64,000 nucleotides of DNA, from contig OY969428.1 in assembly GCA_963699275.1 (NCBI GenBank), forward strand, positions 629,110 to 693,109, in the 5' to 3' direction. Origin of the DNA: an uncultured bacterium. Lineage in GTDB: Bacteria > Babelota > Babeliae > Babelales > Babelaceae. Below the pieces are notes generated by a model. That model saw nothing but the letters and a program-made list of their open reading frames with translations. It searched no databases and was not told the DNA's origin. The position numbers and the translations under genes are program-made. Of this stretch, positions 451-42,137 are shown one piece after another (within the stretch, counting starts at the first letter, position 1; every line of letters starts with the position of its first letter).

Positions 451-870
451 ATGAACAACATATCGATATCGGTATTAGTAAGTGCAGTTTTATTTGCGAT
501 GGCAGGATGCCAAGCATTTAGTTTGGTGAACTCGACCAATATTCCCGTTAAATTCTCATACATGAAAGCCACGAGAATGCTTCTTGTTGGGGAAGGGGGA
601 CCAATGCGCACCTATCCGGTTGGCCCACATGACGTAAGGAACGTAGGTCGACTTCAAGATGGTCCCGGGTTGTATGTATTACGTCTCGAGCGTAACTTTA
701 CGGTAGCCGATGTGATTACTGCCGATATAAATGATCAAACAGAACTTGAAGCCATTCAACCAATCCCTCAAATTCCTACTGCTATGAAGCTCAGGGTAAT
801 TGAGCATATCCCATTAGCAAGTTCCTCTATTTTTATGGCGCCACATTCTAGAAAGGAGAACTGTGAATAA
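451..870 (+). CDS. small putative lipoprotein, unknown function (intact family member)
   Basis: 139-aa ORF with RBS aaaggag at 438-444. N-terminus MNNISISVLVSAVLFAMAGC has a hydrophobic leader ending in a lipobox-like AMAGC. Confidence 0.6.
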   Translation: MNNISISVLVSAVLFAMAGCQAFSLVNSTNIPVKFSYMKATRMLLVGEGGPMRTYPVGPHDVRNVGRLQDGPGLYVLRLERNFTVADVITADINDQTELEAIQPIPQIPTAMKLRVIEHIPLASSSIFMAPHSRKENCE

Positions 871-20810: not shown

Positions 20811-21269
20811 GTGCACAACAATTGCGGCTTTACGCTTATTGAACTTATGATCATCGTCGCCATCATCGCCTTTCTTTCAATGCTTTCCGTACCGAGTCTC
20901 TTAAGAGTGTTAGCAAAGGCTAAGCGGGCTGAGGCATATCTCTATTTACATACTCTTGCTCAGGCTCAAAAAGCTTATCATGCTGAACATGGGAGTTACA
21001 CAAAAAAGATAGGCAAAAAAGGCTCTGATTCATTGCAGTGGGAGCCTGAAGGAAACTATAATTATACCTACGGTTTTCCTGAAGGAGCTGAAGGCGACGG
21101 TCATTTCACTGGTCAACTTAACACCCCTCCGTCTCTGCTTTCAGGAGCTACTATCTCAAAAAATGGTTTTATACTCTATGCGGCAGGATACATCTATGGG
21201 GACAAGCCGGACATCATCTCTATAGACCATCACCATGTTATACGAATTGTTAATGATGCATTAGGATAA
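20811..21269 (+). CDS. type IV pilin / pseudopilin with prepilin cleavage-methylation motif
   Basis: GTG start preceded by aagga. Leader MHNNCG then FTLIELMIIVAIIAFLSMLSVPS (G/FTLIE class III signal). Confidence 0.85.
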   Translation: MHNNCGFTLIELMIIVAIIAFLSMLSVPSLLRVLAKAKRAEAYLYLHTLAQAQKAYHAEHGSYTKKIGKKGSDSLQWEPEGNYNYTYGFPEGAEGDGHFTGQLNTPPSLLSGATISKNGFILYAAGYIYGDKPDIISIDHHHVIRIVNDALG

Positions 21270-21999
21270 ATTTTAGATAGTCCTGCAAAAAGACATACAT
21301 GATAGCGGCAATAGCGAGCCAAGGCCCGAAAGCGAGCTTGATAGAGTGCATTTTCTTGTATTTAAAAATGAGCGCTATTCCTGCAAGTGACCCTAAGAAT
21401 GCTCCTATAAAGAGAGTAAGCCAGGCTCCCCAAAGTCCGGTAAATGCGCCAATCATGGCAAGTAGATCAAGATCTCCTTCACCGAGTGCTTCTATCCTTC
21501 TTACCAGATAAAAGAGCCGAGCAATGAGCCATAGTAAGAGGTAGCCAAGAACAGCTCCTAGAACGCTATCGGTAATAGTTAAAGGGAGGGCATGAAAAAG
21601 AGTCAGTACAATGCCTACGGGGATCATTCCGAGTGTCATATAGTCAGAGATAAGCATGCTCTCAAAATCCGTTCTTATAGTTACAATGAGCGCGGAAAAA
21701 AAGAGACCATAGCTGAAGAAATACTGTGGAATAAAGATAGCCAGTAGTGTAAGCACAATTGCTGTAAACAGTTCTATAAAAGGATACAAAAATGAGATAA
21801 GAGCACGACAGTTGCGGCACCGTCCCCAGAGGATGATCCAAGAAACTATCGGGATTAAATCGTACCAGGCAAGGTGGATCTTGCAATTGGTACAAAATGA
21901 GCGACCCAGAATACTATGTCCCTTAATAAGACGATATCCTAGGCAATTTAAGAAGGATCCCCAGCACAGAAATATTAAAAAGAGTAAGACAATCCAGAT
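21250..21999 (-). CDS. pilD: prepilin peptidase (A24 family); 5' end uncertain, no canonical start codon in the conserved N-terminal part
   Basis: The ORF track starts at TTG 21789, but the same frame is open to 22024. There it encodes the expected Cys-rich N-domain (IWIVLLFLIFLCWGSFLNCLGYRLIKGHSILGRSFCTNCKIHLAWYDLIPIVSWIILWGRCRNCRALIS). Downstream lies GEGDLDLLAMIGAFTG. AAGGAG sits 5 nt before ATC 21999. Confidence 0.75.
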   Translation of the reverse strand: MWIVLLFLIFLCWGSFLNCLGYRLIKGHSILGRSFCTNCKIHLAWYDLIPIVSWIILWGRCRNCRALISFLYPFIELFTAIVLTLLAIFIPQYFFSYGLFFSALIVTIRTDFESMLISDYMTLGMIPVGIVLTLFHALPLTITDSVLGAVLGYLLLWLIARLFYLVRRIEALGEGDLDLLAMIGAFTGLWGAWLTLFIGAFLGSLAGIALIFKYKKMHSIKLAFGPWLAIAAIMYVFLQDYLKFILMHH

Positions 22000-22765: not shown

Positions 22766-23767
22766 CTAAGAAGCTGTATTAAGAATATAGGCATCAAATG
22801 CAACAAGCCATTGAAGAATCTCGCTGTTCTCCGGCTTCTTGCAGGCAAGATCGAGAGCTCTTTCTCCGCGCATGTCTGTTATCATAACATTAATACCCTG
22901 TTTATTGAGAAGTAGTTTAACTATTTCAGTGTGACCGTAAGCAACCGCAAACATCAGAGCTGTTGTGCCAGAATGATCTTGGGAATTAACATCAACACCC
23001 TCTTTTTCAAGGAGCAACCTCACTGTTTCAGGGTGGTTTTCTATAACGGCAAGTGTGAGAGCGGTTGCGCCCGAAATTTCTTGCGCATTCAAACCTATAC
23101 GAGGGATATCAAGAAGTAACTTTGTAATTTTGGCATGACCATTGTAGGCAGCGAACATAAGAGCCGTCTCGCCACCGACATTTCCCGCATTGAAATCAAT
23201 TCCAGGTTGAGCGAGCAGTACTTCAACAACATCCGTATGTCCTTTTTCAGAGGCAATCATGAGAGGAGTGTCACCATCTAAATTTCGGGCGTTGATATCG
23301 GTAGCAGGTTGGGCGAGGAGAAATCGCACAAATTCCACCGGAGCGCCACGTGCTGCGAGCAAGAGAGGTGTTAATTTGTTTAGAATATTGCACTTGGATT
23401 GTAGTGCTTGGAGTATCGTTATATATTGCACTTCTATACTCTCAGGAGAGATAAATCCAGGAAGTGGCACAATGGGAGCTTGAGCATGTTCAGCGACTTG
23501 AGGTGAAAATTCTGAGGAGGCAACATGGACGCTTACCGTGCTTGACCCCGAGCTGCTTGCCTGTGCAGCAGGAATAAATTGTTGATTGTCTGTTGCCATG
23601 TTTTCAGGAATTAATTCTTGTTGATCAGTTTGGTAAAAGCGAGTTTTTTTAAACTCTTGTTCAGTCGGCTCATTGATGTCATCTATTAGATGTCTTTTTT
23701 TTTCCATGGTGAAGAGAGAATGAGTCGCGAGCAAACATGAGATAATGAGAAAAATGTTAAGTTTCAT
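22766..23767 (-). CDS. ankyrin-repeat protein with N-terminal secretion leader
   Basis: Leader MKLNIFLIISCLLATHSLFT then MEKK. There are at least 6 ANK units (G.TPLM.A...GH...V..LL..PGID.NA). Confidence 0.9.
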   Translation of the reverse strand: MKLNIFLIISCLLATHSLFTMEKKRHLIDDINEPTEQEFKKTRFYQTDQQELIPENMATDNQQFIPAAQASSSGSSTVSVHVASSEFSPQVAEHAQAPIVPLPGFISPESIEVQYITILQALQSKCNILNKLTPLLLAARGAPVEFVRFLLAQPATDINARNLDGDTPLMIASEKGHTDVVEVLLAQPGIDFNAGNVGGETALMFAAYNGHAKITKLLLDIPRIGLNAQEISGATALTLAVIENHPETVRLLLEKEGVDVNSQDHSGTTALMFAVAYGHTEIVKLLLNKQGINVMITDMRGERALDLACKKPENSEILQWLVAFDAYILNTAS

Positions 23768-24004
23768 TGAAATTCCTTTTAGATGTTTTTTATCTCACTA
23801 CAGGAGTGCTGTGAGGGGTTAAATGCATATAAAGTCGTGTTATTTAATTAAGACTTGTCTTTTTCATTCTGCGGATTAATAGTATTTTTTAAATTTAGCG
23901 ATTTGATTTGTAATTTCGAAAGTGGTTTCATTATTTTTCAATGCATAATAATGTTAATGCTACGTTTGCTGAAAATCAAATCACCATAAAACAAAAAGCG
24001 CAGT

Positions 24005-25477
24005 TCAAGCATTAGATGCAAAGCCACTGATTAAAATGCCCGGTTTATTAAGAAGGAGTTCTATAATTTCCGTAAAGCCGCCCCATATTGCAAGCGTTAA
24101 CGCCGTCTCTCCAGATCTACTGCGAGCATTGACCTCGATTTCTTCTTTTTCAAGGAGTAGCTCAACGACTTTTTTATGTCCACAATTGGCGGCTAGCATG
24201 AGTGCGGTCCAACCATCTTCTTCGCGTGCATTTACGGTAACTTCGGGTCTGTCGAGAAGCATCTGTATTGTTTCTGAATCGCCCTTTTCAGCAGCAACCA
24301 TGAGAGGCGTACACCCATCGAGAGACTGAGCATTTACATCAATATGAGGATCTCTAAGAAGTATTCGAACGATCTCTTTGTGTTTTTTGCTAGCGGCAAT
24401 CAAGAGGGCCGTCTCTCCTCGACTATTTTGCGCATTGATGGCGATGCTTGGATGGTTGATGAGGAGTTTAGTAATACCTTTATAACCTTTCTCCGCGGCA
24501 AGTCTCAAAGGAGTAGTTCTCAAGAAGTTTTGAGCATTGACAATAATATCAGGATGAGTAAGCAAAAGTTTAACGAGGTCTGTACGTCCCTTGAGGACAG
24601 CGATTAAGAGAGCATTCCATCCTTTGCTATCTTGAATATTAACATCAATGGTAGTTTGATTAAGGAGTATGCGGGCGCTTTCTATTTGCTCAATGTTTGC
24701 AGCGATCATGAGAGCGGTCCAGCCCTCGTAATTTTGGTCATTAATGTCGATGCGAGGTTTACTCAGAAGTATTTTCATGATTGCGCTATTGCCATATTCG
24801 GCAGCTAGCATAAGAGCACTTCTGCCTCCGGGGCCTTTAGCATTGATATCTGGCATAGATAATTTATCAAGCAATTTAACAATTGCTGCTTGCCCGGTTT
24901 TTGTAGCAATCATGAGAGCGGTATTGCCAATGATATCCCTCATGTAGGGTTTAATACCAGGATCGGTGAGCAGTAACTGCACGATTTCTTCGTGACCACT
25001 GTCCGCAGCCAACATGAGAGGAGTCCAGCCATGTTCATTCTGGACATTGACATTCACGTGTTGAGAAAGAAGCGACCGAACGATCGGTGTATGTCCCTTG
25101 TGCGCAGCAATCATGAGTTGCAGTGTTCCTCCCTTTTTTTCGTGAGCGTGAGTGAACTGTTGCAATTGTAATGGCTTCATTGCGCTTTCTGGCGCATTTC
25201 CAATTAAGAACTGTTCATTACTTGGTTGCTCGATAGTGGGATGAACGCGGCTAGCACGTAAGGATGTCGTAGCTGGCATAGTATTGTGTGGAACTATATT
25301 TTTATCTGTCATTTTCGGAGTCGTAGCATTTTCTGTGCGAGCTTTTTTACACTCAATCTTTTCTTTTGTTTTACTGTCAACGTGCTGCCTTTTTTCCATG
25401 GTAAAGACACTTTGATTTGTCAATAAGAACGAAGTAAGAAGAAAAATTTTGACTTTCATGGACATTCCGAATTTCAT
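24005..25477 (-). CDS. ankyrin-repeat protein with N-terminal secretion leader
   Basis: Probable start is MKVKIFLLTSFLLTNQSVFT-MEKR (25459). About 11 ANK units follow. Confidence 0.9.
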   Translation of the reverse strand: MKFGMSMKVKIFLLTSFLLTNQSVFTMEKRQHVDSKTKEKIECKKARTENATTPKMTDKNIVPHNTMPATTSLRASRVHPTIEQPSNEQFLIGNAPESAMKPLQLQQFTHAHEKKGGTLQLMIAAHKGHTPIVRSLLSQHVNVNVQNEHGWTPLMLAADSGHEEIVQLLLTDPGIKPYMRDIIGNTALMIATKTGQAAIVKLLDKLSMPDINAKGPGGRSALMLAAEYGNSAIMKILLSKPRIDINDQNYEGWTALMIAANIEQIESARILLNQTTIDVNIQDSKGWNALLIAVLKGRTDLVKLLLTHPDIIVNAQNFLRTTPLRLAAEKGYKGITKLLINHPSIAINAQNSRGETALLIAASKKHKEIVRILLRDPHIDVNAQSLDGCTPLMVAAEKGDSETIQMLLDRPEVTVNAREEDGWTALMLAANCGHKKVVELLLEKEEIEVNARSRSGETALTLAIWGGFTEIIELLLNKPGILISGFASNA

Positions 25478-25582
25478 CTAGCACACATCCTTATTATGAT
25501 TAGCAAAGACCAGAGTAAAATTATCAAATTATATCAAACCAAGACTTCTTAATTAAGCGTCTATTTTTATTCATCATTAGTA

Positions 25583-25610
25583 AATATATAGACCGCACAA
25601 ATTTTGTCAA
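25583..25610 (-). promoter_or_regulatory. sigma70-like promoter for the 24005..25477 ankyrin gene
   Basis: The minus strand reads TTGACA (25610-25605), a 16-nt spacer, then TATATT (25588-25583). Confidence 0.35.
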
Positions 25611-25800
25611 ATTCATATAGGGTGCTGATAATTTGGAAAGGTCTTAGAATTAAGCATAAAATACTGATTTCTTCATGTTGGGTTACAGGATTGGCGCATT
25701 CAGACTTACGTATATGGTACATTGCCTATTGAGTATTTTCGCTGATTGTTAATGGTATCGGCTAATGATTATGGTTTGTATAGGATGTTTTTTGATCTTG

Positions 25801-27446
25801 CTAATTTAAAACTTTGCGGTGAGAACGAATCAATTCAGCAGTTTCGGTTTCATCCTCTTCGATAGCTATTTCTAAGGCAGTATTTCCTTCATCATTTTTA
25901 TCATCGAGATTAATACCAGGCTTGGCAAGCAACATTTGCACAACATTCTTATGGCCATAGAAAGCAGCAAGCATAAGCGCGGTCCAACCCGAATGATCTC
26001 TTGTATTGATATTTACTTGAAATTTGTCGATTAATAGCTGAACGACTTGCTTTTTCTCAGTAATGCTTCCTGCTGCGCACATGAGAGCATTCCAACCGTC
26101 AGAATTTTGAGCATTGATATTTATGCCAGGCATCTCAAGTAACAAGAGTGCTATATTTTCGAGATCCTGGATTTTGTCAACTTCGCGATCGTTGTTAAGT
26201 GAAATTGTGAGGGCTGTATCAAGACTTTCGTCTTGCATATTAACATCTATCTGTGGTTGAGCAAGCAACATTTGCACAACATTCTTATGGCCATAGAAAG
26301 CAGCAAGCATAAGCGCGGTCCAACCCGAATGATCTCTTGTATTGATATTTACTTGAAATTTGTCGATTAATAGCTGAACGACTTGCTTTTTCTCAGTAAT
26401 GCTTCCTGCTGCGCACATGAGAGCATTCCAACCGTCAGAATTTTGAGCATTGACATTTATGCCAGGCATCTCAAGTAACAAGAGTGCTATATTTTCGAGA
26501 TCCTGGATTTTGTCAACTTCGCGATCGTTGTTAAGTGAAATTGTGAGGGCTGTATCAAGACTTTCTTCTTGCCTATTAACATCTATCTGTGGTTGAGCAA
26601 GCAACATTTGCACAACATTCTTATGGCCATAGAAAGCAGCAAGCATAAGCGCGGTCCAACCCGAATGATCTCTTGTATTGATATTTACTTGAAATTTGTC
26701 GATTAATAGCTGAACGACTTGCTTTTTCTCAGTAATGCTACCCGCTGCGCACATGAGAGCATCCCAACAGTCAGCATTTCTGGCCTTGACATTTATGCCG
26801 GGCATCTCAAGTAACAAGAGTGCTATATCTTCACGATCATTGCTAAGTGAAATTGTGAGGGCTGTATCAAGATCTTCGTCTTGTATTTTAACATCTATCT
26901 GTGGTTGAGCAAGCAACAATTTTACAATTTCTATGTATCCTTGTTCAGTGGCAGCAATAAGCGCAGTCCAAACGGGATCATGTTCACCATGCGTGTTGTT
27001 GATATCAATGCCAGGCTGTGTAAGTAATAGTTGCACGATGTCTTTGTGGCCGTTCATAGCGGCCAGTATGAGAGCAGTCATGCAGCAATTACGAGCATTG
27101 ATATCGATGCCAGGTTGTTTCAGGAGGACGCGAACGATTTCCACATGACCATTGTTAGCTGCGCACATGAGAGGAGAGTTTCCTTCTTCGTTTTGTGCAT
27201 TGATGGCAATATATGGTTTGCCAAGGAGTGCATTGACGATTTCTAATTGACCACTTTCAGCGGCAAGTATGAGGGCTTTTGCATAGTCGTGGGCTTCAAC
27301 AACGTCTGATCTTGATCCCGAGTTACGCGAGTTTTCTTGGAACCTTGCTCAGTTACAACATCATTGAGAATTCTCCTTTTTTCCATCGTAAAAAGAGAAT
27401 GATATGTTGTGAAACATGAAATAATGATAAATACTTTAATGCGCAT
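25801..27446 (-). pseudogene. ankyrin-repeat gene with a frame break between the leader and the repeat region
   Basis: The leader ORF 27243..27446 (MRIKVFIIISCFTTYHSLFT-MEKR...) and the ANK ORF are in different frames. The ANK ORF is open upstream of the M at 27168, to about 27350, and the two overlap at about 27245-27350. One indel would fuse them. Confidence 0.7.
25925..26915 (-). repeat. three tandem 336-bp (112-aa) near-identical intragenic repeats
   Basis: The unit beginning gcaagcaacatttgcacaacattcttatgg recurs at 25925, 26261 and 26597. Copies 1 and 2 are almost identical. Copy 3 is more diverged and has a short deletion. Confidence 0.9.
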
Positions 27447-27642
27447 GACTTACCTTTTTTTAATGAAGTGCTTTCTCTTATTCTTCATCGGTAAATAGCC
27501 TAAAAAAGAAATTGTCACTTGGTGATAGCATCATTTATGTGGCACGGTTTTGCTTAATTAATCGGAAAAATACTTTCTCCACAGAAATAACAATGACTTA
27601 TACTATCCAAAGGCTCAATATTGCCTTTGATTTCTTTTGTTA

Positions 27643-28995
27643 TTAACGCGTGATCTTTCCAAAACTCTTAATCAAATTAACGATAGCGGCATGTCCACGT
27701 TGCCTCGCTATTTCAAGAGCAGTTTCTTTATCCGTATTTTGAGCATTCAGATCAATTGCAGGTACTTTAAGCAGGAGTTGAACAATTTCTGTATGTCCCA
27801 TATCAGCAGCACACATGAGAGGAGTCCATCGATCATTGTCCTGCTGATTAACGTCAATGCTCACTTTTTTAAGTAGGAGTCGAACCATTTCAGTGTGACC
27901 ATGTTTACACGCTATCATAAGAGCAGTAGCACCATCTTCATTTTGTGCATTAATATGGATATGAGCCTTACTAAGAAGGCATTCGGCACTGGCTGTATTT
28001 CCATACTCAGCAGCAATCATTAAAGCACTGATGTCTTGTTCTTCATGAGCATTAATATCGACATCAGGATGATCTATGAGTAATTGTACTATCTCTGAGA
28101 AATCATTTTCGCATGCGAGCATGAGTGCTGTTTGGCCGACATCTTGTTGAACGTTGACATCAATGTCCGGTTCATCAAGAAGCAATTTCACAATTTCTAT
28201 GTGACCTTTTTCGGCAGCGAGCATAAGAGCGGTGTAACCATAGGACTCAACCGCATTAATCTCGATGTCATCCCTGTCAAGAAGTAACTGTACAATTTCT
28301 TGATTGCCCTTTTCAACAGCAACTATGAGTGGCGGTTCTGAGCCTATATTTACATCAATACTGGGCATTGCAAGGAGCAATCGAACGATGTTTATATGTC
28401 CGCCATACAAAGCACAGCTCAGTGCAGATACGCCGGCTCTTTCATCATTGATGTTGATTTTTGGTTGCTTAAGCAGTATTTGAACGATTTCGTAATGACC
28501 ATTCTTGGCAGCTGATATAAGAGCAGTTGTAGTGTCGGGTAGATGGGGAGCATTAACATCAATATCTGGAATGCCAAAAAGCGAATTTACCATTTCTGTA
28601 CGTCCACATTCAGCAGCTATTAAAAGGGCCCTGCAGCAGAGTTGTTGTATGGTTGTATTACCCGATTGTTGCTCAAGTAATTTTTTGATGTCTTGCGCGA
28701 TAGAAATAAAAAATGGTCTCCAATCGGAACTATGACTTGTCTTTTCAAATATAATAGCTTCAAGTATTCGTAACATATACAAGCAAAGTTGCTGATCTTC
28801 CGCCGAAAGTGAGATGAGCTGTTGCGTGAGTGATGATTGACACCTATCGATTTCGGTACTTACCGGTGAAGAATTAACGGTACTTCCAGACTCATTGTGG
28901 TTAGTGTTGCCGAGGGCCTTACGTGTTTGCTCCATGGTTAAAAGGGATGTACTTGCAAACAAACTAGATGTAATAAAAAAAATTTTGAGTTTCAT
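27643..28995 (-). CDS. ankyrin-repeat protein with N-terminal secretion leader
   Basis: Leader MKLKIFFITSSLFASTSLLT then MEQT. About 9 ANK units. Confidence 0.9.
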   Translation of the reverse strand: MKLKIFFITSSLFASTSLLTMEQTRKALGNTNHNESGSTVNSSPVSTEIDRCQSSLTQQLISLSAEDQQLCLYMLRILEAIIFEKTSHSSDWRPFFISIAQDIKKLLEQQSGNTTIQQLCCRALLIAAECGRTEMVNSLFGIPDIDVNAPHLPDTTTALISAAKNGHYEIVQILLKQPKININDERAGVSALSCALYGGHINIVRLLLAMPSIDVNIGSEPPLIVAVEKGNQEIVQLLLDRDDIEINAVESYGYTALMLAAEKGHIEIVKLLLDEPDIDVNVQQDVGQTALMLACENDFSEIVQLLIDHPDVDINAHEEQDISALMIAAEYGNTASAECLLSKAHIHINAQNEDGATALMIACKHGHTEMVRLLLKKVSIDVNQQDNDRWTPLMCAADMGHTEIVQLLLKVPAIDLNAQNTDKETALEIARQRGHAAIVNLIKSFGKITR

Positions 28996-33226: not shown

Positions 33227-33727
33227 ATGAAAAAAATTCTCATTCTCGGATTATTGGCTTTTTCTTGGGGCATATACGCTGAAAACAAAGAAGAGCTTTA
33301 TAAAGAAGAACTTATGGGAGCCATAAAAGAGGGTAATGTCGAAAGCGTTACGAGAATTTTAAAGGCAGGTGACGTGCAGAAAAATCATCTGATAGAAGCT
33401 GCTCTCTTTGCTTTGGATAAAACAAGAAACGAATGTTTAATAAAAGTTCAAAATGAAGCCCAGAAGAGTGGTACTGCCCTGATGGCAGCTATGCTAGGAA
33501 TTTCAGTATATATTTTTGGAATTTGCTATGCGAATAAGATTAATTTTTATGAAAGCTTAGCGTTAGCTTTGATGCCGTCTGTGGGAACTCTATTCGCAGC
33601 GGCAATGGTTAATATATTAGAGTTAAATAAGATAACTACTCCTGACCCACATATTAATGCACTCGAGATTGCTCGACTTGTGGCACATTCAGCTCACAAA
33701 CCTGAAGAACCGTCTGAAAATAAATAA
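33227..33727 (+). CDS. P-family member 1: leader + short helical motif + 2 TM + charged tail, unknown function
   Basis: MKKILILGLLAFSWGIYA-ENKEELYKEELMGAIKEGNVESVTRILKAG..., two hydrophobic helices, then ..LEIARLVAHSAHKPEEPSENK. Confidence 0.7.
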   Translation: MKKILILGLLAFSWGIYAENKEELYKEELMGAIKEGNVESVTRILKAGDVQKNHLIEAALFALDKTRNECLIKVQNEAQKSGTALMAAMLGISVYIFGICYANKINFYESLALALMPSVGTLFAAAMVNILELNKITTPDPHINALEIARLVAHSAHKPEEPSENK

Positions 33728-33844
33728 AACATGAGTTCGATATGAGCAGATTTATTAGGAAGATTTTTCAAGATTCTTTTTTGATGAAATAGGGATCAAA
33801 AAATATCTTAGATATAACGCTAACCATATCATACGAGGAACATC

Positions 33845-34351
33845 ATGAAGAAACTTCTCATTCTTGGATTATTGGCTTTTTCTTCCAGCTTATACGCTGA
33901 AAACAACGAAGAGCTTTCTAAAGAAGAACTTATGAGAGCCATAAAAGAGGGTAATGTCGAAAGCGTTACGAGAATTTTAAAGGCGGGGATACAGAAAAGT
34001 GATCTCACCGATGCCGCACATTTTGCTCTTGATAAAATAAAAAACGAAATTGCACTAAGGGCTGCTAACGAAGAGTATAGGCTCGGATCGACCATGTTGT
34101 CGCTCATCTACATATATGGTTCTTATATGTTTTTCATTTGCCGGGCCAATCACATGCAACTGCACGAGAGCTTAGTGATGTCATTTATTCCTGCCGTTGC
34201 TGTCCCATGTCTAGGCCTTTTAGTAAAATGGTTTGGTCTAGATCAACCTACAATAGCTGATCCTCAAGTTAATACGATAGAAATTGCTCGGCTTGTGGCC
34301 CTTTCAGCGTATTCTGCGAAATCATCTGAAAAGCAAGCAGAGCAAAAATAG
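33845..34351 (+). CDS. P-family member 2
   Basis: MKKLLILGLLAFSSSLYA-ENNEELSKEELMRAIKEGNVESVTRILKAG.... The upstream 110 bp or so also duplicates the region upstream of member 1. Confidence 0.7.
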   Translation: MKKLLILGLLAFSSSLYAENNEELSKEELMRAIKEGNVESVTRILKAGIQKSDLTDAAHFALDKIKNEIALRAANEEYRLGSTMLSLIYIYGSYMFFICRANHMQLHESLVMSFIPAVAVPCLGLLVKWFGLDQPTIADPQVNTIEIARLVALSAYSAKSSEKQAEQK

Positions 34352-34474
34352 ATTACATCAAACTCTTTTTTTACCTGGCATGAAATGTTATTATAACCCA
34401 CTAAAAGATGCCGTTTGACGGAAGAGGTCGCAAAAAGTATGATACCATTAGCACTGATCTGTAAGAGGAACAAC

Positions 34475-35002
34475 GTGAAGAACTATATTATCATCGCTTT
34501 TCTAGTCCCCATTTTCACGGGTATCCTGTTTGCTGATCAAAAGCAAGAGCTTATGGATGCAATAAAAAAACGCGACATTAATCAACTTGCAAGGATTTTA
34601 TTGAAAGCAGATCTCATGCAAAAAAGTGATCTAGAGGACGCGCAGCAGTATGCTTTTGATAGACTAAAACATCCGTCAGTAGAGAGAACTCCTTTTGAAT
34701 GGTGCCAAGTTATAGGAGGCCCTACCGTGGGTTTCTGGAGTCTCTATTGGATTTTGACGAAAATGGGACGTTCAAATGGCCCGCTTGTTTGGTTACACCT
34801 GGGTGCTTTGGTTGTATCACCCTTTGTTATGCTTAATGGTTTTTTGGCGCCAATTATACGCTCGACTGCGTCAGAAGTAATTGCTGAATATGTATCAAAA
34901 GCAGCTGATATTGTACGAGAACATCCTGAAAAAGGGAAACAAAGGCTTTTGCTTGAAAAGCTTATATTTGAAGGGACCACTTTTATTAGAGGAACACCAT
35001 GA
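34475..35002 (+). CDS. P-family member 3
   Basis: GTG 34475 is preceded by aagaggaacaac, the same RBS context as members 4 and 5. VKNYIIIAFLVPIFTGILFA-DQKQELMDAIKKRDINQLARILLKAD... Confidence 0.6.
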   Translation: MKNYIIIAFLVPIFTGILFADQKQELMDAIKKRDINQLARILLKADLMQKSDLEDAQQYAFDRLKHPSVERTPFEWCQVIGGPTVGFWSLYWILTKMGRSNGPLVWLHLGALVVSPFVMLNGFLAPIIRSTASEVIAEYVSKAADIVREHPEKGKQRLLLEKLIFEGTTFIRGTP

Positions 35003-35526
35003 ACAACTATCTTCTTATTGTGTCTTTTGCTTGTGTTTTTACAAGTGCTCTGTTTGCGGATAAGAGAGATGAACTTATCAGTTCAATAAAACGGGGCGAT
35101 GTAGAAAAAGTAACAAGAATTTTAAGAAAGGCTGATCAAATTCAGAAAAATGACCTCGAGGAAGCAGCTGAATATGCTCTCGACCGAACAAAATCGCCAT
35201 CCTTATCTCGGACTGGATGGGAATGGACGAAGGCTATTGCTGGTGGTTTGTTCTTACCAACCAGTCTGCTTAGTTGGCACTGGTTCACCGGGGGACCATT
35301 TAGAGATGATTCTCCTAATTGGTTTGATGTGGGACATGCTATGTTTGCGGCTTTATGTGCGTATCTGCTTTACTCCGGGATAAGCACACCAATCAAGCGC
35401 TATGCTGGTGCGAAAGAAATTGCTCACCTGGTAGGAAATGCAGCTGAAAAAACTGGAGAAAAATCTGAAAATGCAGGCGAGCAATCAGCTCCGCGAAAAA
35501 GATTAATAATCGATGACGAAGATTGA
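34999..35526 (+). CDS. P-family member 4
   Basis: MNNYLLIVSFACVFTSALFA-DKRDELISSIKRGDVEKVTRILRKAD.... ATGA overlap with member 3. Confidence 0.7.
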   Translation: MNNYLLIVSFACVFTSALFADKRDELISSIKRGDVEKVTRILRKADQIQKNDLEEAAEYALDRTKSPSLSRTGWEWTKAIAGGLFLPTSLLSWHWFTGGPFRDDSPNWFDVGHAMFAALCAYLLYSGISTPIKRYAGAKEIAHLVGNAAEKTGEKSENAGEQSAPRKRLIIDDED

Positions 35527-35549
35527 GTCTTTATTAAAGAGGAACAACC

Positions 35550-36077
35550 ATGAATAAATATTTTCTTATTGGGTCTTTTGCTTTCACAAGTATTTTGTTT
35601 GCGGATAAGCGAGATGAACTTATCAGTGGAATAAAAAAAGGTGACGTAGAAAAAGTCACAAGAATATTAAGAAAGGCCGATCAAATCCAGAAAAATGACC
35701 TCGAGGAAGCAGCTGAATATGCTCTCGATCGAACAAAATCGCCATCCTTATCTCGGACTGGATGGGAATGGACGAAGACTATTGCTGGTGGGTTGTTCTT
35801 ATCAACCAATTTGATTAGTTGGTACGTGAGGTTCACCCACGAAGAATTCAGAAATGTCCCTTTTCCTAATTTGCATGATGGGGTGCATATTGTCTGGACA
35901 TCTTTATGGGCGTATCTGCTTTACTCCGGGATAAGTGAACCATACAAGCGCTATGCTGGTGCGAAAGAAATTGCACGCCTGGTAGGAAATGTAGCTAAAA
36001 AAACTGATCAAAAATCCCAAAATGCAGGTGAGCAACCAGCTCCACGAAAAAGATTAATAATCGATGACGAGGATTGA
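35550..36077 (+). CDS. P-family member 5 (recent duplicate of member 4)
   Basis: The first 80 aa or so and the last 45 aa or so are nearly identical to member 4 (...KNDLEEAAEYALDRTKSPSLSRTGWEWTK...; ...RKRLIIDDED). Confidence 0.7.
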   Translation: MNKYFLIGSFAFTSILFADKRDELISGIKKGDVEKVTRILRKADQIQKNDLEEAAEYALDRTKSPSLSRTGWEWTKTIAGGLFLSTNLISWYVRFTHEEFRNVPFPNLHDGVHIVWTSLWAYLLYSGISEPYKRYAGAKEIARLVGNVAKKTDQKSQNAGEQPAPRKRLIIDDED

Positions 36078-36229
36078 TTTTCATTTTATTTAAAAGAATG
36101 AAAAGCATAGCGAATACGCTTTTCAGCCCTTTTTTTATTTTAAATTTCGAAAAGATTAGTTGTATGATTTGATGAGAGAAATAACAAAAATAGTATAACG
36201 ATATATTTCTTCAAGGCATTTAAAGGAGC

Positions 36230-36682
36230 ATGATGATTAATCGTTTATTTATTGGTTTACTAGTTTTCATCTCTACAGGCTGCATTTTTGCTGATCAAGA
36301 GGATCGGCATGTGGGAGGTATAGACAAAAATGAAGACCTAATGACTGCCATAAAAAAAAGGGATGTTCGAGAAGTTAAAAGAATTTTGGCGGATGTCGAT
36401 GCTATGCAGACAAAGGATTTAGAAACTGCTTTTGAGTATGCTTCTTCCCGCATGAAACAAAGTTCACAACGTAAGTGGTGGGAATGGTTTTTGATTATAT
36501 ATTGTGGTGTACACTTATTTAAAAGAGATGGTGCTAACTACTGGCATATTTTGAATACTATTTTTGCGACGCTAGGAATGTGTTACGGGATAATCGGTCC
36601 TTTTAATCGGCAGGCAGCAGCAGAAAAAATTACTCGGCTTTTGCTGACAAAGTGCCGCGAGAAAAATGTGGAAATCCAGTAA
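36230..36682 (+). CDS. P-family member 6 (divergent)
   Basis: Leader ...FISTGCIFA-DQEDR.., DLMTAIKKRDVREVKRILADVDAMQTKDLETAFEYA, one or two TM segments, AEKITRLLL tail. Confidence 0.6.
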   Translation: MMINRLFIGLLVFISTGCIFADQEDRHVGGIDKNEDLMTAIKKRDVREVKRILADVDAMQTKDLETAFEYASSRMKQSSQRKWWEWFLIIYCGVHLFKRDGANYWHILNTIFATLGMCYGIIGPFNRQAAAEKITRLLLTKCREKNVEIQ

Positions 36683-36716
36683 AATAGTACTTCCCATAAA
36701 GAAAAATAATTCATCG

Positions 36717-37307
36717 ATGAGGAAAGATTTGAAAACCCTAACGATAATACCTATGTACTTGGTTATTTTTGGAAGTGTTAGTTTGCATGCTGACAAAGCA
36801 CAGAATGCACTCATGCGAGATGCTATTGAGACGTCTGATGTGTTAGCAGTCAGGGGACTTCTGAAAAAAGTAGAGCCTCTTAAAACCGCAGATAAGACTT
36901 CCTGGATCAAATTTGCAGATGATGTCATTGGGGAAAAAAGAGAGTTAACATCTCTTCTTAAGAGCCCACGTGATCTTATACGGTTTCTGTTTGGAGCAAC
37001 CGTTACCGTAAGCTGCACAGGACTTGCCGGCTTTTTTTTCAGACGCTACCTTAGGTGCCCGCTAAACTCGGGGGTGGACCCTGAAGAAAGAAGAACAAAT
37101 TTAGTCTATAGTGGTCTTTCTGCAGGTGTAGTAATACTGGGTGTTATCGCAATGGTCAAGGGTTGGTATTGTGATACTGCATATGCCAATGTAAAACTTG
37201 CTCGCCTAGCGAAAGAAGCTATCGAAAAAGCTCTTGTGGAAGGAGCTACTGGTACTCCTCAGTTAGCACAAAAAGATATTCGATCTTCAGACAAAAAAGA
37301 TCAGTGA
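36717..37307 (+). CDS. P-family member 7 (most divergent)
   Basis: MRKDLKTLTIIPMYLVIFGSVSLHA-DKAQNALMRDAIETSDVLAVRGLLKK.., two TM segments, VKLARLAKEAIEKAL tail. Confidence 0.55.
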   Translation: MRKDLKTLTIIPMYLVIFGSVSLHADKAQNALMRDAIETSDVLAVRGLLKKVEPLKTADKTSWIKFADDVIGEKRELTSLLKSPRDLIRFLFGATVTVSCTGLAGFFFRRYLRCPLNSGVDPEERRTNLVYSGLSAGVVILGVIAMVKGWYCDTAYANVKLARLAKEAIEKALVEGATGTPQLAQKDIRSSDKKDQ

Positions 37308-37412: not shown

Positions 37413-38302
37413 ATGAAAAACATTATAGTAAAGATTTTGTTTTCTGCTCTCGTGTTACTTCCCTCAGTGAAGGCGATGCAGCAGTCACAAACTTCAGCAA
37501 ATAGTCGCAGACAACGGCGCAATCGTCTGATCAGCAAAACAATGCAGTATTGCAGCAAATGCTTGTTGCTTCTATGGATCAGTCCCACATGCAAGCTATT
37601 TTAACGAGTATGGCTGAGATATCGAAGGCGATTCTTGCTCGTATTGAGAAAGAAAAACAGGAAGAATTGGCAAAGGCCAATGAAAAATATCAAGCGGCAT
37701 TTGTGTGCGCGTTTCAGAACAGTGAGTCGACGCAAGAGGAAAAAGAGATTGCCTTGGAATATATAGCATTTTCCGCTCGCTTAATACCGGCAATAGCTGA
37801 TTATTATGCGAAGAAAGCTACTTTAGAGAAAGTGGCTGAAGAAGTACAATGGCGTGCTATTTCTGCCTTACAATGGCAGATTTCAAAAGTTGATCTGCCT
37901 GGGGAATGTTGTGTAGCTCCGTATCGTGAAATGACCCATGAAGACTATCTCAAAGAGCGTATAAGATGTGAGAAAATTTTGGCTTCTCGACCGACTGCTG
38001 ATGACGTTGGAATAGCGGCACTGTGTTGGATTGCGAATGAAGGAAATTGGGCAACTCAGCAAAAAAAGGATGCCGCTACAAACCTGCAGGCCGCAAATGC
38101 GACGATCGAAGCGACAGTTCTCTCGCCTCAAATGGCAGCTCTGAAAGCACAATATACAAAAAGAAAGCGCATGTTAACTTCCTATTTAGGCAGTTATTTC
38201 TTTTCTCAAGAAACGCGTTCGCAAGCAGCTTTAGAGTTTTACGAAATAAGTAAGGCAGAAAAAAAGCTCGCCCAATCACAGAGTCAGCCGGCTGCTCAAT
38301 AA
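37413..38302 (+). pseudogene. Q-family member 1 (exported coiled-coil protein) with a frame break after the leader
   Basis: The leader MKNIIVKILFSALVLLPSVKA-MQQSQTSAN.. (frame of ORF 37377..37604) runs into a stop. The homologous body (..NNAVLQQMLVASMDQSHMQAILTSMAEISKAILARIEKEK..) is in the -1 frame (ORF 37550..38302), which is closed by TAG just upstream of about 37505. Confidence 0.65.
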
Positions 38303-38367: not shown

Positions 38368-39498
38368 ATGAAAAACATTTCAATCAAGATCATCTTGCTT
38401 GGTCTTGCATTCAGTACTTCAACAAAAGCAATGCAATCATCATCACAAGCTTCAGCTGACTCCATGACTGCGGAGCATACGACAACTACTGAAAACTTAG
38501 TTGGAGCATTTAATGCTCAAATAAACGCACTAACAGAACGATTTCATTCGGAAAAAAGATTCTTGGAAGCTGCGCAAGGGGACGAACGTGTGGCACGATT
38601 GGCCTTTATTCAAACTTTACAAACGGAGCTTAGTGATCTTGTCGATAGACGTGATGCACAACGAGCGGCTGGCGCAGGTCTGCGGCCTTCAAATGGACAG
38701 GCAGCGCAATCTTCTACCCAGCCTCAAGAAACGGTACAAAACGCTCTCTTAGCTTCTATGCAAAAATCACAGGTGCATGGAAGAATTTTAGAATGTATGG
38801 CTGAGTTAGCTAAGAAAATTGTTGCTCGCTTTTCGAAAGAAAGGGATGCAGAAATGGAAAAGGCTAGAATGCAAAATGAACAAGCTCTGCAAGTTCTTAA
38901 AAACAGTGAGTCGACGCCAGAGCAAAAAGAACTTGCTATTGAGCAGATAGAGTTTTTAGGGCGTTTGATGCCTGCGATAGCTGATTACTATGCAAAAGCT
39001 GCAGCCTTAGATAATATATTTACTGAAGTTCGCTGGCGAACGATTTCAGGTCTCCAGCGCGCAGCAGCTGAGGCTGGTCAGCCACCGAAACAATGTGTGG
39101 GTGGTTCTGAAACAGTTATGACCCATGAGGATTATTTAAGTTCACGTGCTAGATATGAAAAAATTCTTGATGATCTTCAGGCATCTGATCTACTTAAACA
39201 GGACACCATTTTATCCTGGTATTGGACTGAAAAGAGATGGGAAGGGCAGCAAAGAAAAAATGCTGCTAACGAAGTGAAAGCCAATAATGCTGCAACCGAG
39301 AAAACAGAAACACCGGTTCTTACTCAAGTAGCAAGCCAAAAAGCTGAATATATGAAGAAGCAGCATACTCTAGCTCTTTATATAGGCTGTTATTTCTTTA
39401 CTGAGGAAGTACGTGTGAAAGCGGCTTTGGATTTCTATCAGATTGAAAAAGAAATAAGACGACTTGTGCATCCAAGTACTCAGTCAGCTTCGCATTAA
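38368..39498 (+). CDS. Q-family member 2
   Basis: MKNISIKIILLGLAFSTSTKA-MQSSS... Shared blocks ILECMAELAKKIVARFSKERDAEMEKA, NSESTPEQKELAIEQIEFLGRLMPAIADYYAK and AALDFYQIEKE. Confidence 0.7.
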   Translation: MKNISIKIILLGLAFSTSTKAMQSSSQASADSMTAEHTTTTENLVGAFNAQINALTERFHSEKRFLEAAQGDERVARLAFIQTLQTELSDLVDRRDAQRAAGAGLRPSNGQAAQSSTQPQETVQNALLASMQKSQVHGRILECMAELAKKIVARFSKERDAEMEKARMQNEQALQVLKNSESTPEQKELAIEQIEFLGRLMPAIADYYAKAAALDNIFTEVRWRTISGLQRAAAEAGQPPKQCVGGSETVMTHEDYLSSRARYEKILDDLQASDLLKQDTILSWYWTEKRWEGQQRKNAANEVKANNAATEKTETPVLTQVASQKAEYMKKQHTLALYIGCYFFTEEVRVKAALDFYQIEKEIRRLVHPSTQSASH

Positions 39499-39624: not shown

Positions 39625-40473
39625 ATGAATATTTCGCAGAGAGCAGTAGTTATGTGCTTGCTTGTTACTTTATTTTCTTCGGTAATGGCGATGCAGCAAG
39701 AGGAACGTAATATTCAGTGCTATGAACAAATTCTAACCAGACTGCCTCCTTCTCAAAAAATGTTACACATTATGGCGCGTATAGCCGAAGCGATTTTTGC
39801 TCGCGCTGAGAAAGAAAGGCGAGCAGAGATGCTTAAAGTGCGAACAGAGTTGGACAGTGCTTTGAAGGTTCTTCGAAGCAGCCTATCATCACAACAGGAA
39901 AAAGAACAGGCAAGCGAGACGGTTGAATTTTTAAATAGACTTTCAGGTGAGATCTCGGTCCATTTTGCAAAAAAGACCGCAACTCAGGCTGTGCTTGAAG
40001 AGGCTTCGGGCAGGGCTCTTTTTGCCCTAAATGATGCCGTTGAAAGAGTAAGTGCTGATGAGCCTCATGACGACACCCCGCGGGAAGAATTTAAATTAGG
40101 ACATTATCAAGATGATCTGAATCGAGCGCTTAGTATTCTTAATGATGCAGAGAGTCCTCTTAAAGAAAAACGGAATGTTGCGAGGGTATGGTATTTCAAT
40201 GAGCTTCGTTGGGCAGAGCAACAAAGCAAGAAGAACACAGAAAAAGCACAGCAAGATGCGCCAGTAGCTCAGATAGACAATAAAAAAGTTCCGATCCTCT
40301 CGCCAGAACAAGCAGCGCAGAAAGCCGAATATGAAAAAACAAAGCGTATCGCAGTGAAGTATATACACTGTAATTATTTTAGTGAAGACGTGCGCTATCA
40401 AGCAGCGCTTGATTTCTATCTTGCAGACAAAGCCGAAAAAGATCTTACAGCTTTTCAGTCCACCACATCCTAA
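39625..40473 (+). CDS. Q-family member 3
   Basis: MNISQRAVVMCLLVTLFSSVMA-MQQEE... Shared blocks MARIAEAIFARAEKERRAEMLK, SSQQEKEQASETVEFLNRL and AALDFYLADKAEKDL. Confidence 0.7.
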   Translation: MNISQRAVVMCLLVTLFSSVMAMQQEERNIQCYEQILTRLPPSQKMLHIMARIAEAIFARAEKERRAEMLKVRTELDSALKVLRSSLSSQQEKEQASETVEFLNRLSGEISVHFAKKTATQAVLEEASGRALFALNDAVERVSADEPHDDTPREEFKLGHYQDDLNRALSILNDAESPLKEKRNVARVWYFNELRWAEQQSKKNTEKAQQDAPVAQIDNKKVPILSPEQAAQKAEYEKTKRIAVKYIHCNYFSEDVRYQAALDFYLADKAEKDLTAFQSTTS

Positions 40474-40531: not shown

Positions 40532-40625
40532 GGCACCATTTGCGCTTACCTGTAATAGAGAGTAATCTAGTACTATCTCTTTTTTTAAGAGTACACTATT
40601 TGGGAATGTGATTCGGGGGAACACC

Positions 40626-42137
40626 ATGAATATAAGTCAGAAATCAGTTCTGGCTTTCGTAACGTTTATGCCACTTCTGCTCAATGCAGCAGGAGAGGCA
40701 TTCTTGGAAGGCCGCATTCGTACGGCAATTGCGGAACGTCAATCGAGAATTAATAGTCCAATTTCAGGCGAGCGGGTTGCGCAAAGAGCCATTGAACAGC
40801 GACTGAGATCTCCAGAAGAGTGCATACGTGAAGCTGTCGAATTGCGCGAGACAATCAGGTTTGCCCATGAAATTGCTCATGATCCTGCAAACAATCCACA
40901 AGCTCTTATCGCCTCAGTGAATGCTGAGCAGGCAGAATATGAGCGCAGAGAGCGTGAGGAACTTGAAGCATCAATTAAATGGAGAAATACCCTTCTTACC
41001 CCATTCGAAATTAATGGCTATACGGTGCCTGTTGGATTTTATAAGAGAGATCTTATAGAATTACCCATTTATGGGGTCCAATTGTATGCACGTAAGCTTC
41101 TTAGAACATCGCTTAAACAACGCCGTGAAGAAACTATCATTAAGCATATTACTGAAGGCGCATATAATTCGCTCATCGAAATTCTCGAATCGGTAAAGAA
41201 AGCCGAAGAAAAATATGAGCTTGAGTATGAAGAAAAAAGTGCGCTTGGAAAGTTATTTACTGTTGATTCACGCGCACGAGATGTTCTTTTGAATCCTATA
41301 CGTGAGTACCTTTACGAGAACCACTATCTTATCGGTTATCTGCCCATTAATACCATGGTTTTATTTCCGTTACTCTCATGCTGGCTTTTTGATAAGACGA
41401 GCTCCTGGCTTGAATCGACGCTCTTAGAGAAGGATTATGATGAGATTTTTCGCAGGGGTGGGGTTCAAGCTTTGAACATGGAATATCTTGAAGCCTTTCA
41501 ACCAAATGCTGAAGGGCAACTAATAAAGGCTGAAAAGACGCCATTTACACTAACAACGAGCTTGCGATTTTGCGAATGGCTGTTATCTTTTTCGTATTTT
41601 CATAAGCTGCCAAGCACCATGAATTTACGAGTATTTTTATTATGGCTTTGGGGTATTCCAGCGCCTCTTTTTAATGACGCAAAAATTTTCAAGACTATGA
41701 GTCAGCTCGCAGGAGTAAAGTTACCTGATGCATTCTACTCGAAGCCGGTTGAGTTGGCTATCGAATATTTAGGTTATGGATTTTCCGCGAAACTTTTTGA
41801 TAGACAATGCGGTGAAACGTGGACGAAATACGTTTTGGAGAACCGTGAAAAATTTCTCACACGCTTAAAAAATTATAAACGTGCAGTAGAGCAACTTGAT
41901 AATGCTGAGGTCGCTGTTAAAGAAGCTGAGCGAAAATTGAGAAAATTTGTGGAAAATGGCCACCGCATGAATTCATGGTTGCCGGGTGCTGAGGCAAGGC
42001 AGTGGTGGAAGTCGGAATCTCGTGGATCCACTACAATAACGAATGCGGTCAGCCTTGGCTTGACGGGTATAATGGCATATAAGTTGGCCCGATGGTATTG
42101 GAATATAACGCATCCGCGAGCTGAGCATCCAGCTTAA
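40626..42137 (+). CDS. large exported/membrane protein, unknown function
   Basis: Start is taken at MNISQKSVLAFVTFMPLLLNA (same MNISQ leader type as Q3). A charged helical region is followed by several hydrophobic segments and a C-terminal TM segment (AVSLGLTGIMAYKLARWYW). Confidence 0.6.
   Translation: MNISQKSVLAFVTFMPLLLNAAGEAFLEGRIRTAIAERQSRINSPISGERVAQRAIEQRLRSPEECIREAVELRETIRFAHEIAHDPANNPQALIASVNAEQAEYERREREELEASIKWRNTLLTPFEINGYTVPVGFYKRDLIELPIYGVQLYARKLLRTSLKQRREETIIKHITEGAYNSLIEILESVKKAEEKYELEYEEKSALGKLFTVDSRARDVLLNPIREYLYENHYLIGYLPINTMVLFPLLSCWLFDKTSSWLESTLLEKDYDEIFRRGGVQALNMEYLEAFQPNAEGQLIKAEKTPFTLTTSLRFCEWLLSFSYFHKLPSTMNLRVFLLWLWGIPAPLFNDAKIFKTMSQLAGVKLPDAFYSKPVELAIEYLGYGFSAKLFDRQCGETWTKYVLENREKFLTRLKNYKRAVEQLDNAEVAVKEAERKLRKFVENGHRMNSWLPGAEARQWWKSESRGSTTITNAVSLGLTGIMAYKLARWYWNITHPRAEHPA

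Follow-up and report, generated by a model that had tools for sequence, protein, structure and literature searches.

Methionine directly follows the predicted signal peptides of many exported proteins in an uncultured member of the Dependentiae

Why should so many predicted exported proteins of one bacterium carry a methionine (Met) immediately after the leader peptide? The question is raised by a window of 64,000 nucleotides (genome positions 629110-693109) from an uncultured bacterium of the Babelaceae in the phylum Dependentiae (assembly GCA_963699275.1, contig OY969428.1), whose genome is a single contig of 1.73 Mb with 41% G+C. Its topoisomerase I is most closely related to those of metagenome-assembled genomes labelled candidate division TM6 or Babeliales, which places it in this phylum. 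An earlier note, made from the letters of this window, had described a leader followed by an invariant Met in at least nine exported proteins, and it had offered three accounts of the junction: a cut by signal peptidase directly before the Met, a second initiation site at the internal AUG, or a leader module grafted onto pre-existing reading frames. All ten junctions quoted there were found in the sequence, and they belong to four clustered ankyrin genes, two more ankyrin genes, three orphan genes (Q1-Q3) and a gene for an AAA+ ATPase. In this text, residues are numbered from the predicted cleavage site, so that +1 (P1') is the first residue of the mature protein and -1 the last residue of the leader.

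Genome-wide counts confirmed that the junction is present on about 200 exported proteins, beyond chance. Genes were called with a crude caller, which always takes the first ATG, keeps open reading frames (ORFs) of at least 80 amino acids and resolves overlaps, and which yielded 1440 ORFs. A signal-peptide-like segment was found at the beginning of 540 of them (37%), in line with the 44% of coding sequences reported for Chromulinavorax destructans (PMC6561590). In these 540 ORFs the counts of Met peaked at positions 20-23 (39, 71, 30 and 36, with about 10 elsewhere). Cleavage sites were placed by a -3/-1 heuristic of our own that is blind to the residue at +1, and Met occupied +1 at 144 of the 514 predicted signal peptidase I sites, or 28% compared with a background of 1.9% (15-fold, binomial p ~1e-120); the genome-wide enrichment that the earlier note had proposed to look for is therefore present. 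A start-codon-independent pattern likewise returned 209 ORFs with Met as opposed to 24-109 for eleven other residues, and after normalisation the values were 7.8 for Met and 0.4-1.1 for the others. The Met-aligned set (n=196) gave the logo S-[L/A/I]-[F/S/L/Y]-[A/S/G/T]-M-[Q/E/D]-[K/Q], with the predicted cut between [A/S/G/T] and M. The filters overlook further cases, such as leaders without Lys or Arg and non-ATG starts.

When the mature parts were clustered by BLAST, 78 unrelated clusters, 51 of them singletons, were found to hold at least one Met-junction protein, which shows that no fewer than 78 unrelated families acquired or kept the junction independently. It could still be argued that the excess is an artefact of ORF calling or of one big paralogous family, as the caller always takes the first ATG and the largest cluster, which is ankyrin-rich, supplies 87 of the 196 cases. 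We consider this extremely unlikely and largely refuted by the controls. In particular, the positional profile of Met was flat, with no peak, in the 900 ORFs without a signal-peptide-like start; three related genomes (G016, G014 and G010), taken as negative controls, showed no Met excess by the same pipeline; the other 77 clusters also have the junction; and the leaders are part of the publicly called genes of the AAA+ family.

The leaders themselves were found to be ordinary. Each has an n-region rich in Lys and Asn (MK/MN...K) followed by an uncharged hydrophobic core of 10-15 residues, traits that are built into the heuristic. In the Met set, position -1 is Ala (45%), Ser (19%), Gly (17%) or Thr (15%), and position -3 is most often Leu (47%), Ala (14%) or Ile (11%). 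Outside the ankyrin family, Met-junction leaders have the same c-region and length as Met-less leaders. The 'fixed length' attributed to the leaders did not hold, as the genome-wide median length was 20 residues for Met-junction leaders and 21 for others, with interquartile ranges of 19-22 and 18-23, respectively, and the leaders in the window are 19-27 residues long. Inspection by eye of the ten window leaders and of the Met-junction listing revealed no Tat (twin-arginine translocation) RR motif. Two tandem signal peptidase I genes (PF10502) are located at genome positions 846599-848202, outside the window. The Met-junction leaders are thus canonical Sec/signal peptidase I signal peptides, and among the three accounts the one that fits best is that signal peptidase cuts at the predicted bond and the mature protein starts with Met; the canonical c-region and the two peptidase genes agree with it, while the cut itself we infer from the sequence.

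Judged by the von Heijne -3/-1 rule, the leaders agree with classical signal peptides in all three regions (n, h and c), in being about 20 residues long, in the small residue that occupies -1, in the small or aliphatic one at -3 and in having no Pro at +1. The commonest +1 residue of well-studied bacteria is Ala, with Met seldom found there, in contrast to the 15-20-fold enrichment of Met observed here. The lipobox L-[A/S]-[G/A]-C is also similar in its frequent Leu at -3, its small -1 residue and its one invariant +1 residue; it differs in that +1 here is Met and not an acylated Cys, and -2 is bulky (F/Y/L), as at signal peptidase I sites. The lipobox Cys was not found at +1 of the Met-junction set, and true, Cys-type lipoboxes form a separate and smaller class in the genome, such as ...FAMAGC at window position 451. 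The gene at window positions 451-870, with paralogues just upstream of the window, has a lipoprotein-type leader (...VLFAMAGC) with Met at the -3 position of the lipobox; this is a different signal, which a loose search for Met junctions may pick up wrongly.

The second account would make the junction AUG a start codon, so that a cytoplasmic form lacking the leader would be made in addition to the exported protein. An in-frame ATG does lie exactly at the mature start, and only about half of the genes have a recognisable Shine-Dalgarno sequence, so that initiation without one exists in this genome. However, a Shine-Dalgarno core 4-mer was found upstream of 57% of the leader ATGs of the Met set (42% of all first ATGs) but of only 1 of the 196 junction ATGs (0.5%), compared with 10.6% of random internal ATGs (p 1e-41). 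The sequence upstream of the junction ATGs is T/C-rich coding sequence and not A-rich, and the alternative starts GTG and TTG showed no enrichment at +1. The residue after the junction Met is Gln in 26%, Glu in 22% and Asp in 9% of cases, whereas true second codons most often specify Lys (13%), Ile (10%) and Asn (9%). Because the junction ATGs are nearly devoid of Shine-Dalgarno cores, GTG and TTG are unenriched and the +2 residues are unlike second codons, dual initiation is unsupported; cytoplasmic copies of some 200 host-directed proteins would also have no obvious use, and we judge it very unlikely. Codon choice at -1 and +2 followed genome usage, except for a mild avoidance of T before the ATG, which shows that the constraint acts on the protein and not on the DNA. 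At three of the four clustered ankyrin junctions the sequence is ACC-ATG-G (23705-23710, 25397-25402 and 28933-28938), which is Kozak-like and in which ACC encodes the Thr at -1. A junction motif at the DNA level was rejected, as ACC-ATG-G is not general in the Met set and codon usage is ordinary.

The third account needs to be considered in two forms. A grafted leader cassette was rejected, since only 3 of 15,293 leader pairs between clusters reach 55% identity, and the mean identity of leaders between families was 0.14, compared with 0.10 in a shifted control. A broader form is that the Met was once the start of ORFs, some of them perhaps acquired, to which a leader was added later by 5' extension or grafting, and that it is inherited within expanded families with no present function. 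The Met set is indeed dominated by eukaryote-like, probably acquired domains, T-rich upstream DNA may readily encode hydrophobic peptides, and the ACC-ATG-G of the clustered ankyrin genes would suit a former start. On the other hand, ACC-ATG-G and the +2 residues fail as general traces of a start codon, the 78 unrelated clusters with Met have leaders that are not common to families, and almost every intact ankyrin protein has a leader and Met of its own, with leaderless paralogues starting at the equivalent Met almost absent. A neutral relic would also decay, and the junction Met was found to be the best-conserved residue amid randomised neighbours. We therefore regard a relic start as distinctly unlikely, and the graft suggested earlier did not survive these comparisons.

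Conservation of the Met was assessed with paralogue pairs and with the AAA+ family, because reciprocal-best hits are scarce for Met-set proteins even in the sample from the same genus and few orthologues are available. The homology of the paralogue pairs was defined beyond +30, and the junction was set blind to +1. As a result, +1 was the most conserved column, with an identity of 0.51-0.61, compared with 0.06-0.08 at +5 to +13 and 0.11-0.36 at the leader positions. In the AAA+ family, Met was present at the junction in about 12 of 17 homologues from related genomes and was kept in 16 of 21 public homologues; identity was 0.58 at +1 and 0.05-0.23 elsewhere, and the leaders and early mature sequences could not be aligned. 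One orthologue pair differed by V/M at the junction, which hints at the gain of Met by point mutation under an existing leader and speaks against a relic start. These alignments give good support for selection on the Met, which is conserved better than any other position in the N-terminal region.

The AAA+ family was found in most relatives of the same genus, each of which has two or three copies. The presence of a Sec leader on an ATP-dependent AAA+ enzyme implies action in the host. One public homologue has been named 'ATPase family AAA domain-containing protein 3A/B' (ATAD3) by the Joint Genome Institute (JGI); ATAD3 is a eukaryotic mitochondrial protein.

We also found that the Met is unevenly distributed among the exported proteins. 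Two or more ankyrin repeats were present in 72 of the 196 Met-junction proteins and in 9 of the 239 other exported proteins (p 2e-19), and all eight exported proteins with a RING pattern have the Met junction (8 versus 0). Among ten non-ankyrin proteins of the Met set sampled with Pfam, six were orphans, and the sample also gave a SET domain, a DXD glycosyltransferase and Sel1/TPR repeats, whereas a sample of the Met-less exported proteins returned FKBP, M15 D-Ala-D-Ala peptidase, Skp/OmpH, hemerythrin and others. The SET protein (genome positions 1259024-1259752) and the protein with the DXD glycosyltransferase domain (614627-615601), both outside the window, combine a Sec leader with the Met junction and are eukaryote-like enzyme types. 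In four sampled relatives, only 7% of the Met-set proteins had reciprocal-best orthologues, compared with 26% for the remaining exported proteins and 43% for the leaderless proteins. The conclusion that Met marks the accessory, fast-evolving, eukaryote-like secretome and not the resident envelope proteins is well supported. RING, SET and AAA+ domains require ubiquitin machinery, S-adenosylmethionine or ATP, which the periplasm does not contain, and these cofactor needs indicate action inside the host.

Further features of the predicted mature N-termini were also recorded. The housekeeping leaders of the genome mostly expose Asp, Glu, Lys, Gln or Asn at +1. After the junction Met, Asp, Glu, Asn or Gln made up 61% of the +2 residues, compared with 23% at true second codons, and Leu, Phe, Tyr, Trp or Ile made up 6.6%, compared with 20-24% in controls. 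Furthermore, a basic KK[A/T]R motif was observed 11-29 residues past the junction Met in 15 of the 72 Met-junction ankyrin proteins, including the first three of the clustered genes; this is 21%, compared with 2% of background windows. The motif often precedes I-K-x-E motifs with acidic tails, as in ...QKKARGNGPKVEIKQEEND.... By their sequence, these elements resemble a monopartite nuclear localization signal (NLS) and SUMO-consensus sites and suggest that the proteins are targeted to the host nucleus.

To place the rule within the order, the same pipeline was applied to 90-400 kb samples of nine related genomes, with the mean of eight other residues (2.1-3.6 in every genome) as the comparison baseline. 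Enrichment of Met at the junction was 19.6 in the genome studied here, 13.5 in the sample from the same genus (G006), and 20.9, 11.9 and 5.3 in three samples from the same family (G012, G011 and G010, respectively). In five samples from other families it was 8.4 (G015), 8.0 (G017), 7.3 (G013), 3.6 (G016) and 2.4 (G014). The rule is thus patchy within the order, and it is strongest where the genome is larger and effector families have expanded. Almost no ankyrin genes are present in the samples of G016, G010, G014, G013, G015 and G017, and since G013 has small orphan proteins with ...A-M-[D/E], the rule is not tied to ankyrin repeats.

Candidate machinery was compared with this distribution. 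A dedicated second signal peptidase was rejected, as the copy number of signal peptidase I (1-3, often in tandem) does not follow rule strength; the rule is strong in G011 and G012, with a single copy each, and absent from G014, which has two. These counts also bear on the idea that the Met serves only processing precision, a bulky P1' Met followed by Gln, Glu or Asp fixing the register or rate of signal peptidase I, with the mature terminus otherwise irrelevant. None of Met, Gln, Glu and Asp can serve as the -1 residue under the textbook -3/-1 rule, leaders with and without Met do not differ in their c-regions, and the genome has tandem signal peptidase I duplicates, all of which would fit. 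However, the housekeeping proteins of the same cell manage without Met, and Asp or Glu at +1, which their leaders use, would lock the register equally well. Together with the copy numbers, this leaves precision as an improbable sole explanation.

Secretins, which are candidates for the outer-membrane route of Sec-exported proteins, gave two to five matches in each of 21 genomes, and three secretin-family genes lie close together at genome positions 254882-264525, outside the window. Two M24 genes (Met aminopeptidase-type) were found in all 21 genomes; type I glutaminyl cyclase (PF05096) was absent from all of them, and type II (M28) cyclase was not searched for. As co-varying machinery, the secretins, M24 and the type I cyclase were set aside as uninformative, being present in all 21 genomes or absent from all.

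The ubiquity of secretins would fit the main rival explanation, in which the Met-[Q/E/D] terminus would be recognised in the periplasm and direct a second export step (secretin/type II-like, or vesicle loading), thereby parting host-bound from envelope proteins. Such a tag would produce the clear division that is seen, with Met on effector-like proteins and no Met on housekeeping ones, and position-specific rules are known after the lipoprotein Cys (textbook) and in maturation at the Plasmodium export element (PEXEL; PMC10900883). PEXEL processing resembles the junction in that proteins bound for the host have an export leader and are then processed to a defined N-terminus, often x-E/Q/D. It differs in its RxLxE/Q/D motif, its plasmepsin V, its site in the parasite endoplasmic reticulum and its kingdom; no RxL motif was found in the Met set, whose logo is flat past +3, so the resemblance is functional only. 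Against a sorting tag, secretins are equally present in the rule-less G010, G014 and G016, a receptor candidate was not found, known type II secretion signals are conformational and not N-terminal (textbook), and, in the Q-rule study (PMC5837995), the +1 residue is shown not to be a generic sorting signal. We consider this explanation rather unlikely, although it is the strongest competitor.

The closest analogue of the Met rule is the Q-rule of the Bacteroidetes, in which, according to two papers, Gln stands at +1 of signal peptidase I substrates and is cyclised to pyroglutamate (PMC5837995, PMC10653852). Both are lineage-specific, proteome-wide P1' residues on ordinary Sec/signal peptidase I leaders, seen as a statistical excess and absent from related lineages. 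They differ in that Gln is found on most substrates there, whereas Met is found here at 28% of sites, and at roughly a third of the leaders in this genome and several related Dependentiae, with Gln at only 5% of +1 positions and common at +2 (26%). In addition, the Met rule is biased to accessory, effector-like proteins and is patchy within the order, and there a cyclase is known, whereas here no modifying enzyme is known and the type I cyclase is absent in the 21 genomes. The available text of the Q-rule paper mentions neither Met nor TM6.

A Met rule at +1 was not found in the searchable Dependentiae literature, which does report abundant signal peptides on ankyrin proteins, and 'methionine' did not co-occur with Dependentiae or signal-peptide topics in literature searches. 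For Chromulinavorax destructans, signal peptides on 78% of ankyrin proteins and Sec-dependent secretion have been reported (PMC6561590). The ankyrin proteins of this species and of Babela massiliensis belong to the same phylum and the same protein class as those studied here, and that report is silent on the residue after cleavage. We thus found no earlier description of a Met-first rule after Dependentiae signal peptides, in agreement with the earlier note, which was aware of none.

Within the window, the four clustered ankyrin genes lie on the minus strand. The first, ank1 (22766-23767), encodes an ankyrin-repeat protein of 333 amino acids (Ank_2, E 2e-42 in Pfam) with the 20-residue Sec leader MKLNIFLIISCLLATHSLFT-MEKK, which ends in ...SLFT; the Met21 codon is at 23705-23707, an AAGGA Shine-Dalgarno sequence precedes the leader ATG, and an NLS-like KKTR is located early in the mature region. 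The second, ank2 (24005-25477; 490 amino acids), has the junction ...NQSVFT-MEKR with the Met codon at 25397-25399, and its leader is 26 residues long (Met27) from the first ATG at 25477 or 20 residues (Met21) from the ATG at 25459. The third, ank3 (25801-27446), is a frameshifted ankyrin gene with the leader MRIKVFIIISCFTTYHSLFT-MEKR and the Met21 codon at 27384-27386; its leader frame (27446-27243) and the ankyrin frame (open from 27348 down to 25801) overlap, and one frameshift separates them. The fourth, ank4 (27643-28995), encodes an ankyrin-repeat protein of 450 amino acids with the junction ...STSLLT-MEQT and the Met21 codon at 28933-28935.

The two other ankyrin genes are ank5 (53628-55859, plus strand; 743 amino acids), with ...SYPLCA-MSSK and the Met20 codon at 53685-53687, and a RING/ankyrin gene (60681-62507, minus strand; 608 amino acids, zf-RING_2 and Ank_2), with ...NASAIA-MQPN and the Met20 codon at 62448-62450. 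All six window ankyrin proteins, including the one that also has a RING finger, were confirmed by Pfam. Together with a gene that runs past the window end (62743-64000), the RING/ankyrin gene forms a tandem family of exported ankyrin/RING proteins, the junctions of which read ...-MQPN/MQPS/MQLA...NDIHKLCLLED.

The remaining Met-junction genes are on the plus strand. Q1 (37413-38302) is a frameshifted exported orphan with ...LLPSVKA-MQQS and the Met22 codon at 37476-37478, in which the leader frame (37413-37604) overlaps a body frame open from 37505, again with one frameshift. The frameshifts of ank3 and Q1 reflect either the decay of members of expanded families into pseudogenes or indel errors in a long-read assembly. 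Q2 (38368-39498), also an exported orphan, has the leader MKNISIKIILLGLAFSTSTKA-MQSS, which ends in ...TSTKA, and the Met22 codon at 38431-38433. Q3 (39625-40473; 282 amino acids) is an exported orphan with ...LFSSVMA-MQQE, the Met23 codon at 39691-39693 and a GGAGG ahead of the leader ATG. No Pfam match was found for Q1-Q3. The AAA+ ATPase (42170-43840; 556 amino acids, PF00004) is exported and has ...AVQLYS-MEAA, the looser version of the junction, with the Met28 codon at 42251-42253. Q3 and the next gene (40608-42137) have a common leader start, MNISQ[R/K], and differing junctions, ...VMA-MQQE and ...NAAG-EAFLEG, and it is possible that Met was gained or lost inside one family.

Two loci on the plus strand serve as Met-less comparators. 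A gene for an outer-membrane protein of 854 amino acids (44478-47042), which we read as BamA-like from its size and N-terminus, has the same kind of leader without Met (...FSCGLYA-DVPW). An array of seven tandem genes for small membrane proteins (33227-37307) has the same c-region as the Met leaders but Asp or Glu at +1 (...YA-ENKE, ...FA-DKRD and others). In addition, a type IV pilin-like gene (...FTLIELMIIVAIIA...) at 20811-21789 lies beside an ORF resembling a prepilin peptidase, both recognised by eye.

What the Met is for is a separate question from its existence, selection and distribution, which are well supported. The reading we prefer, to which we assign a probability of about 50%, is that a P1' Met has been selected on host-directed effectors and gives them a defined, stable, eukaryote-like N-terminus. 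In this scheme, Sec would export the precursor and signal peptidase I would cut between [A/S/G/T] and Met; since Met and the following Gln, Glu or Asp cannot fill the S1 pocket, the cut would be made in one register. The mature protein would then leave the cell, probably by a secretin-based route or in vesicles, and act in the protist host. There, its Met-[Q/E/D/N] terminus would resemble a native eukaryotic one of the Met-retaining class, and, as it is not a Met-hydrophobic degron, it would escape N-degron recognition. By the N-degron rules, N-terminal Asp, Glu, Lys, Gln and Asn are destabilising in the eukaryotic cytosol, and the Asp, Glu, Lys and Gln termini left by the housekeeping leaders would be expected to destabilise a protein there. 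Protection from N-degrons is our most likely guess at the purpose of the Met. According to two papers, the exposed N-terminal residue governs the activity of bacterial proteins delivered to the cytosol (PMC3755998, PMC2518864).

Several points weigh against this reading. The cleavage sites are predictions from the -3/-1 heuristic on the output of a crude ORF caller, anchoring the AAA+ alignments on the Met is partly circular, and some AAA+ homologues have Pro at -1 (...TLP-MA...), which is unfavourable for signal peptidase I. Ala, Ser, Gly and Thr are largely stabilising too, and shielding from N-degrons alone leaves their unequal use at +1 unexplained. The few Met-less ankyrin proteins with leaders expose Asp, Glu, Lys, Ile or Gln. 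No dedicated enzyme or transporter was found to track the rule among signal peptidase I copies, secretins, M24 and the type I cyclase, and delivery to the host cytosol is unproven for every member of the Dependentiae.

The Dependentiae are widespread, almost wholly uncultured protist parasites, which export at least one third of their proteome through Sec alone; to our knowledge, the phylum is without type III, IV or VI secretion. We tentatively propose, at somewhat short of even odds, a mature-N-terminus code for the Dependentiae, in which Met-[Gln/Glu/Asp/Asn] would be exposed on host-bound proteins either as a native-looking, N-degron-proof terminus (possibly NatB-type and acetylatable) in the cytosol or nucleus of the protist or as a tag for exit from the periplasm. 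If true, this code would be a sequence marker listing the effector repertoire of an uncultured phylum, and the one-residue rule would give a simple computational marker for effectors, with about 200 proteins in this genome, including ankyrin, RING, SET and AAA+ proteins. After the Q-rule of the Bacteroidetes, it would be the second lineage-specific P1' rule to become known, and signal-peptide predictors trained on model bacteria may misplace cleavage sites in the Dependentiae. The rule would also link the processing of bacterial signal peptides with the eukaryotic pathways of N-terminal protein stability.

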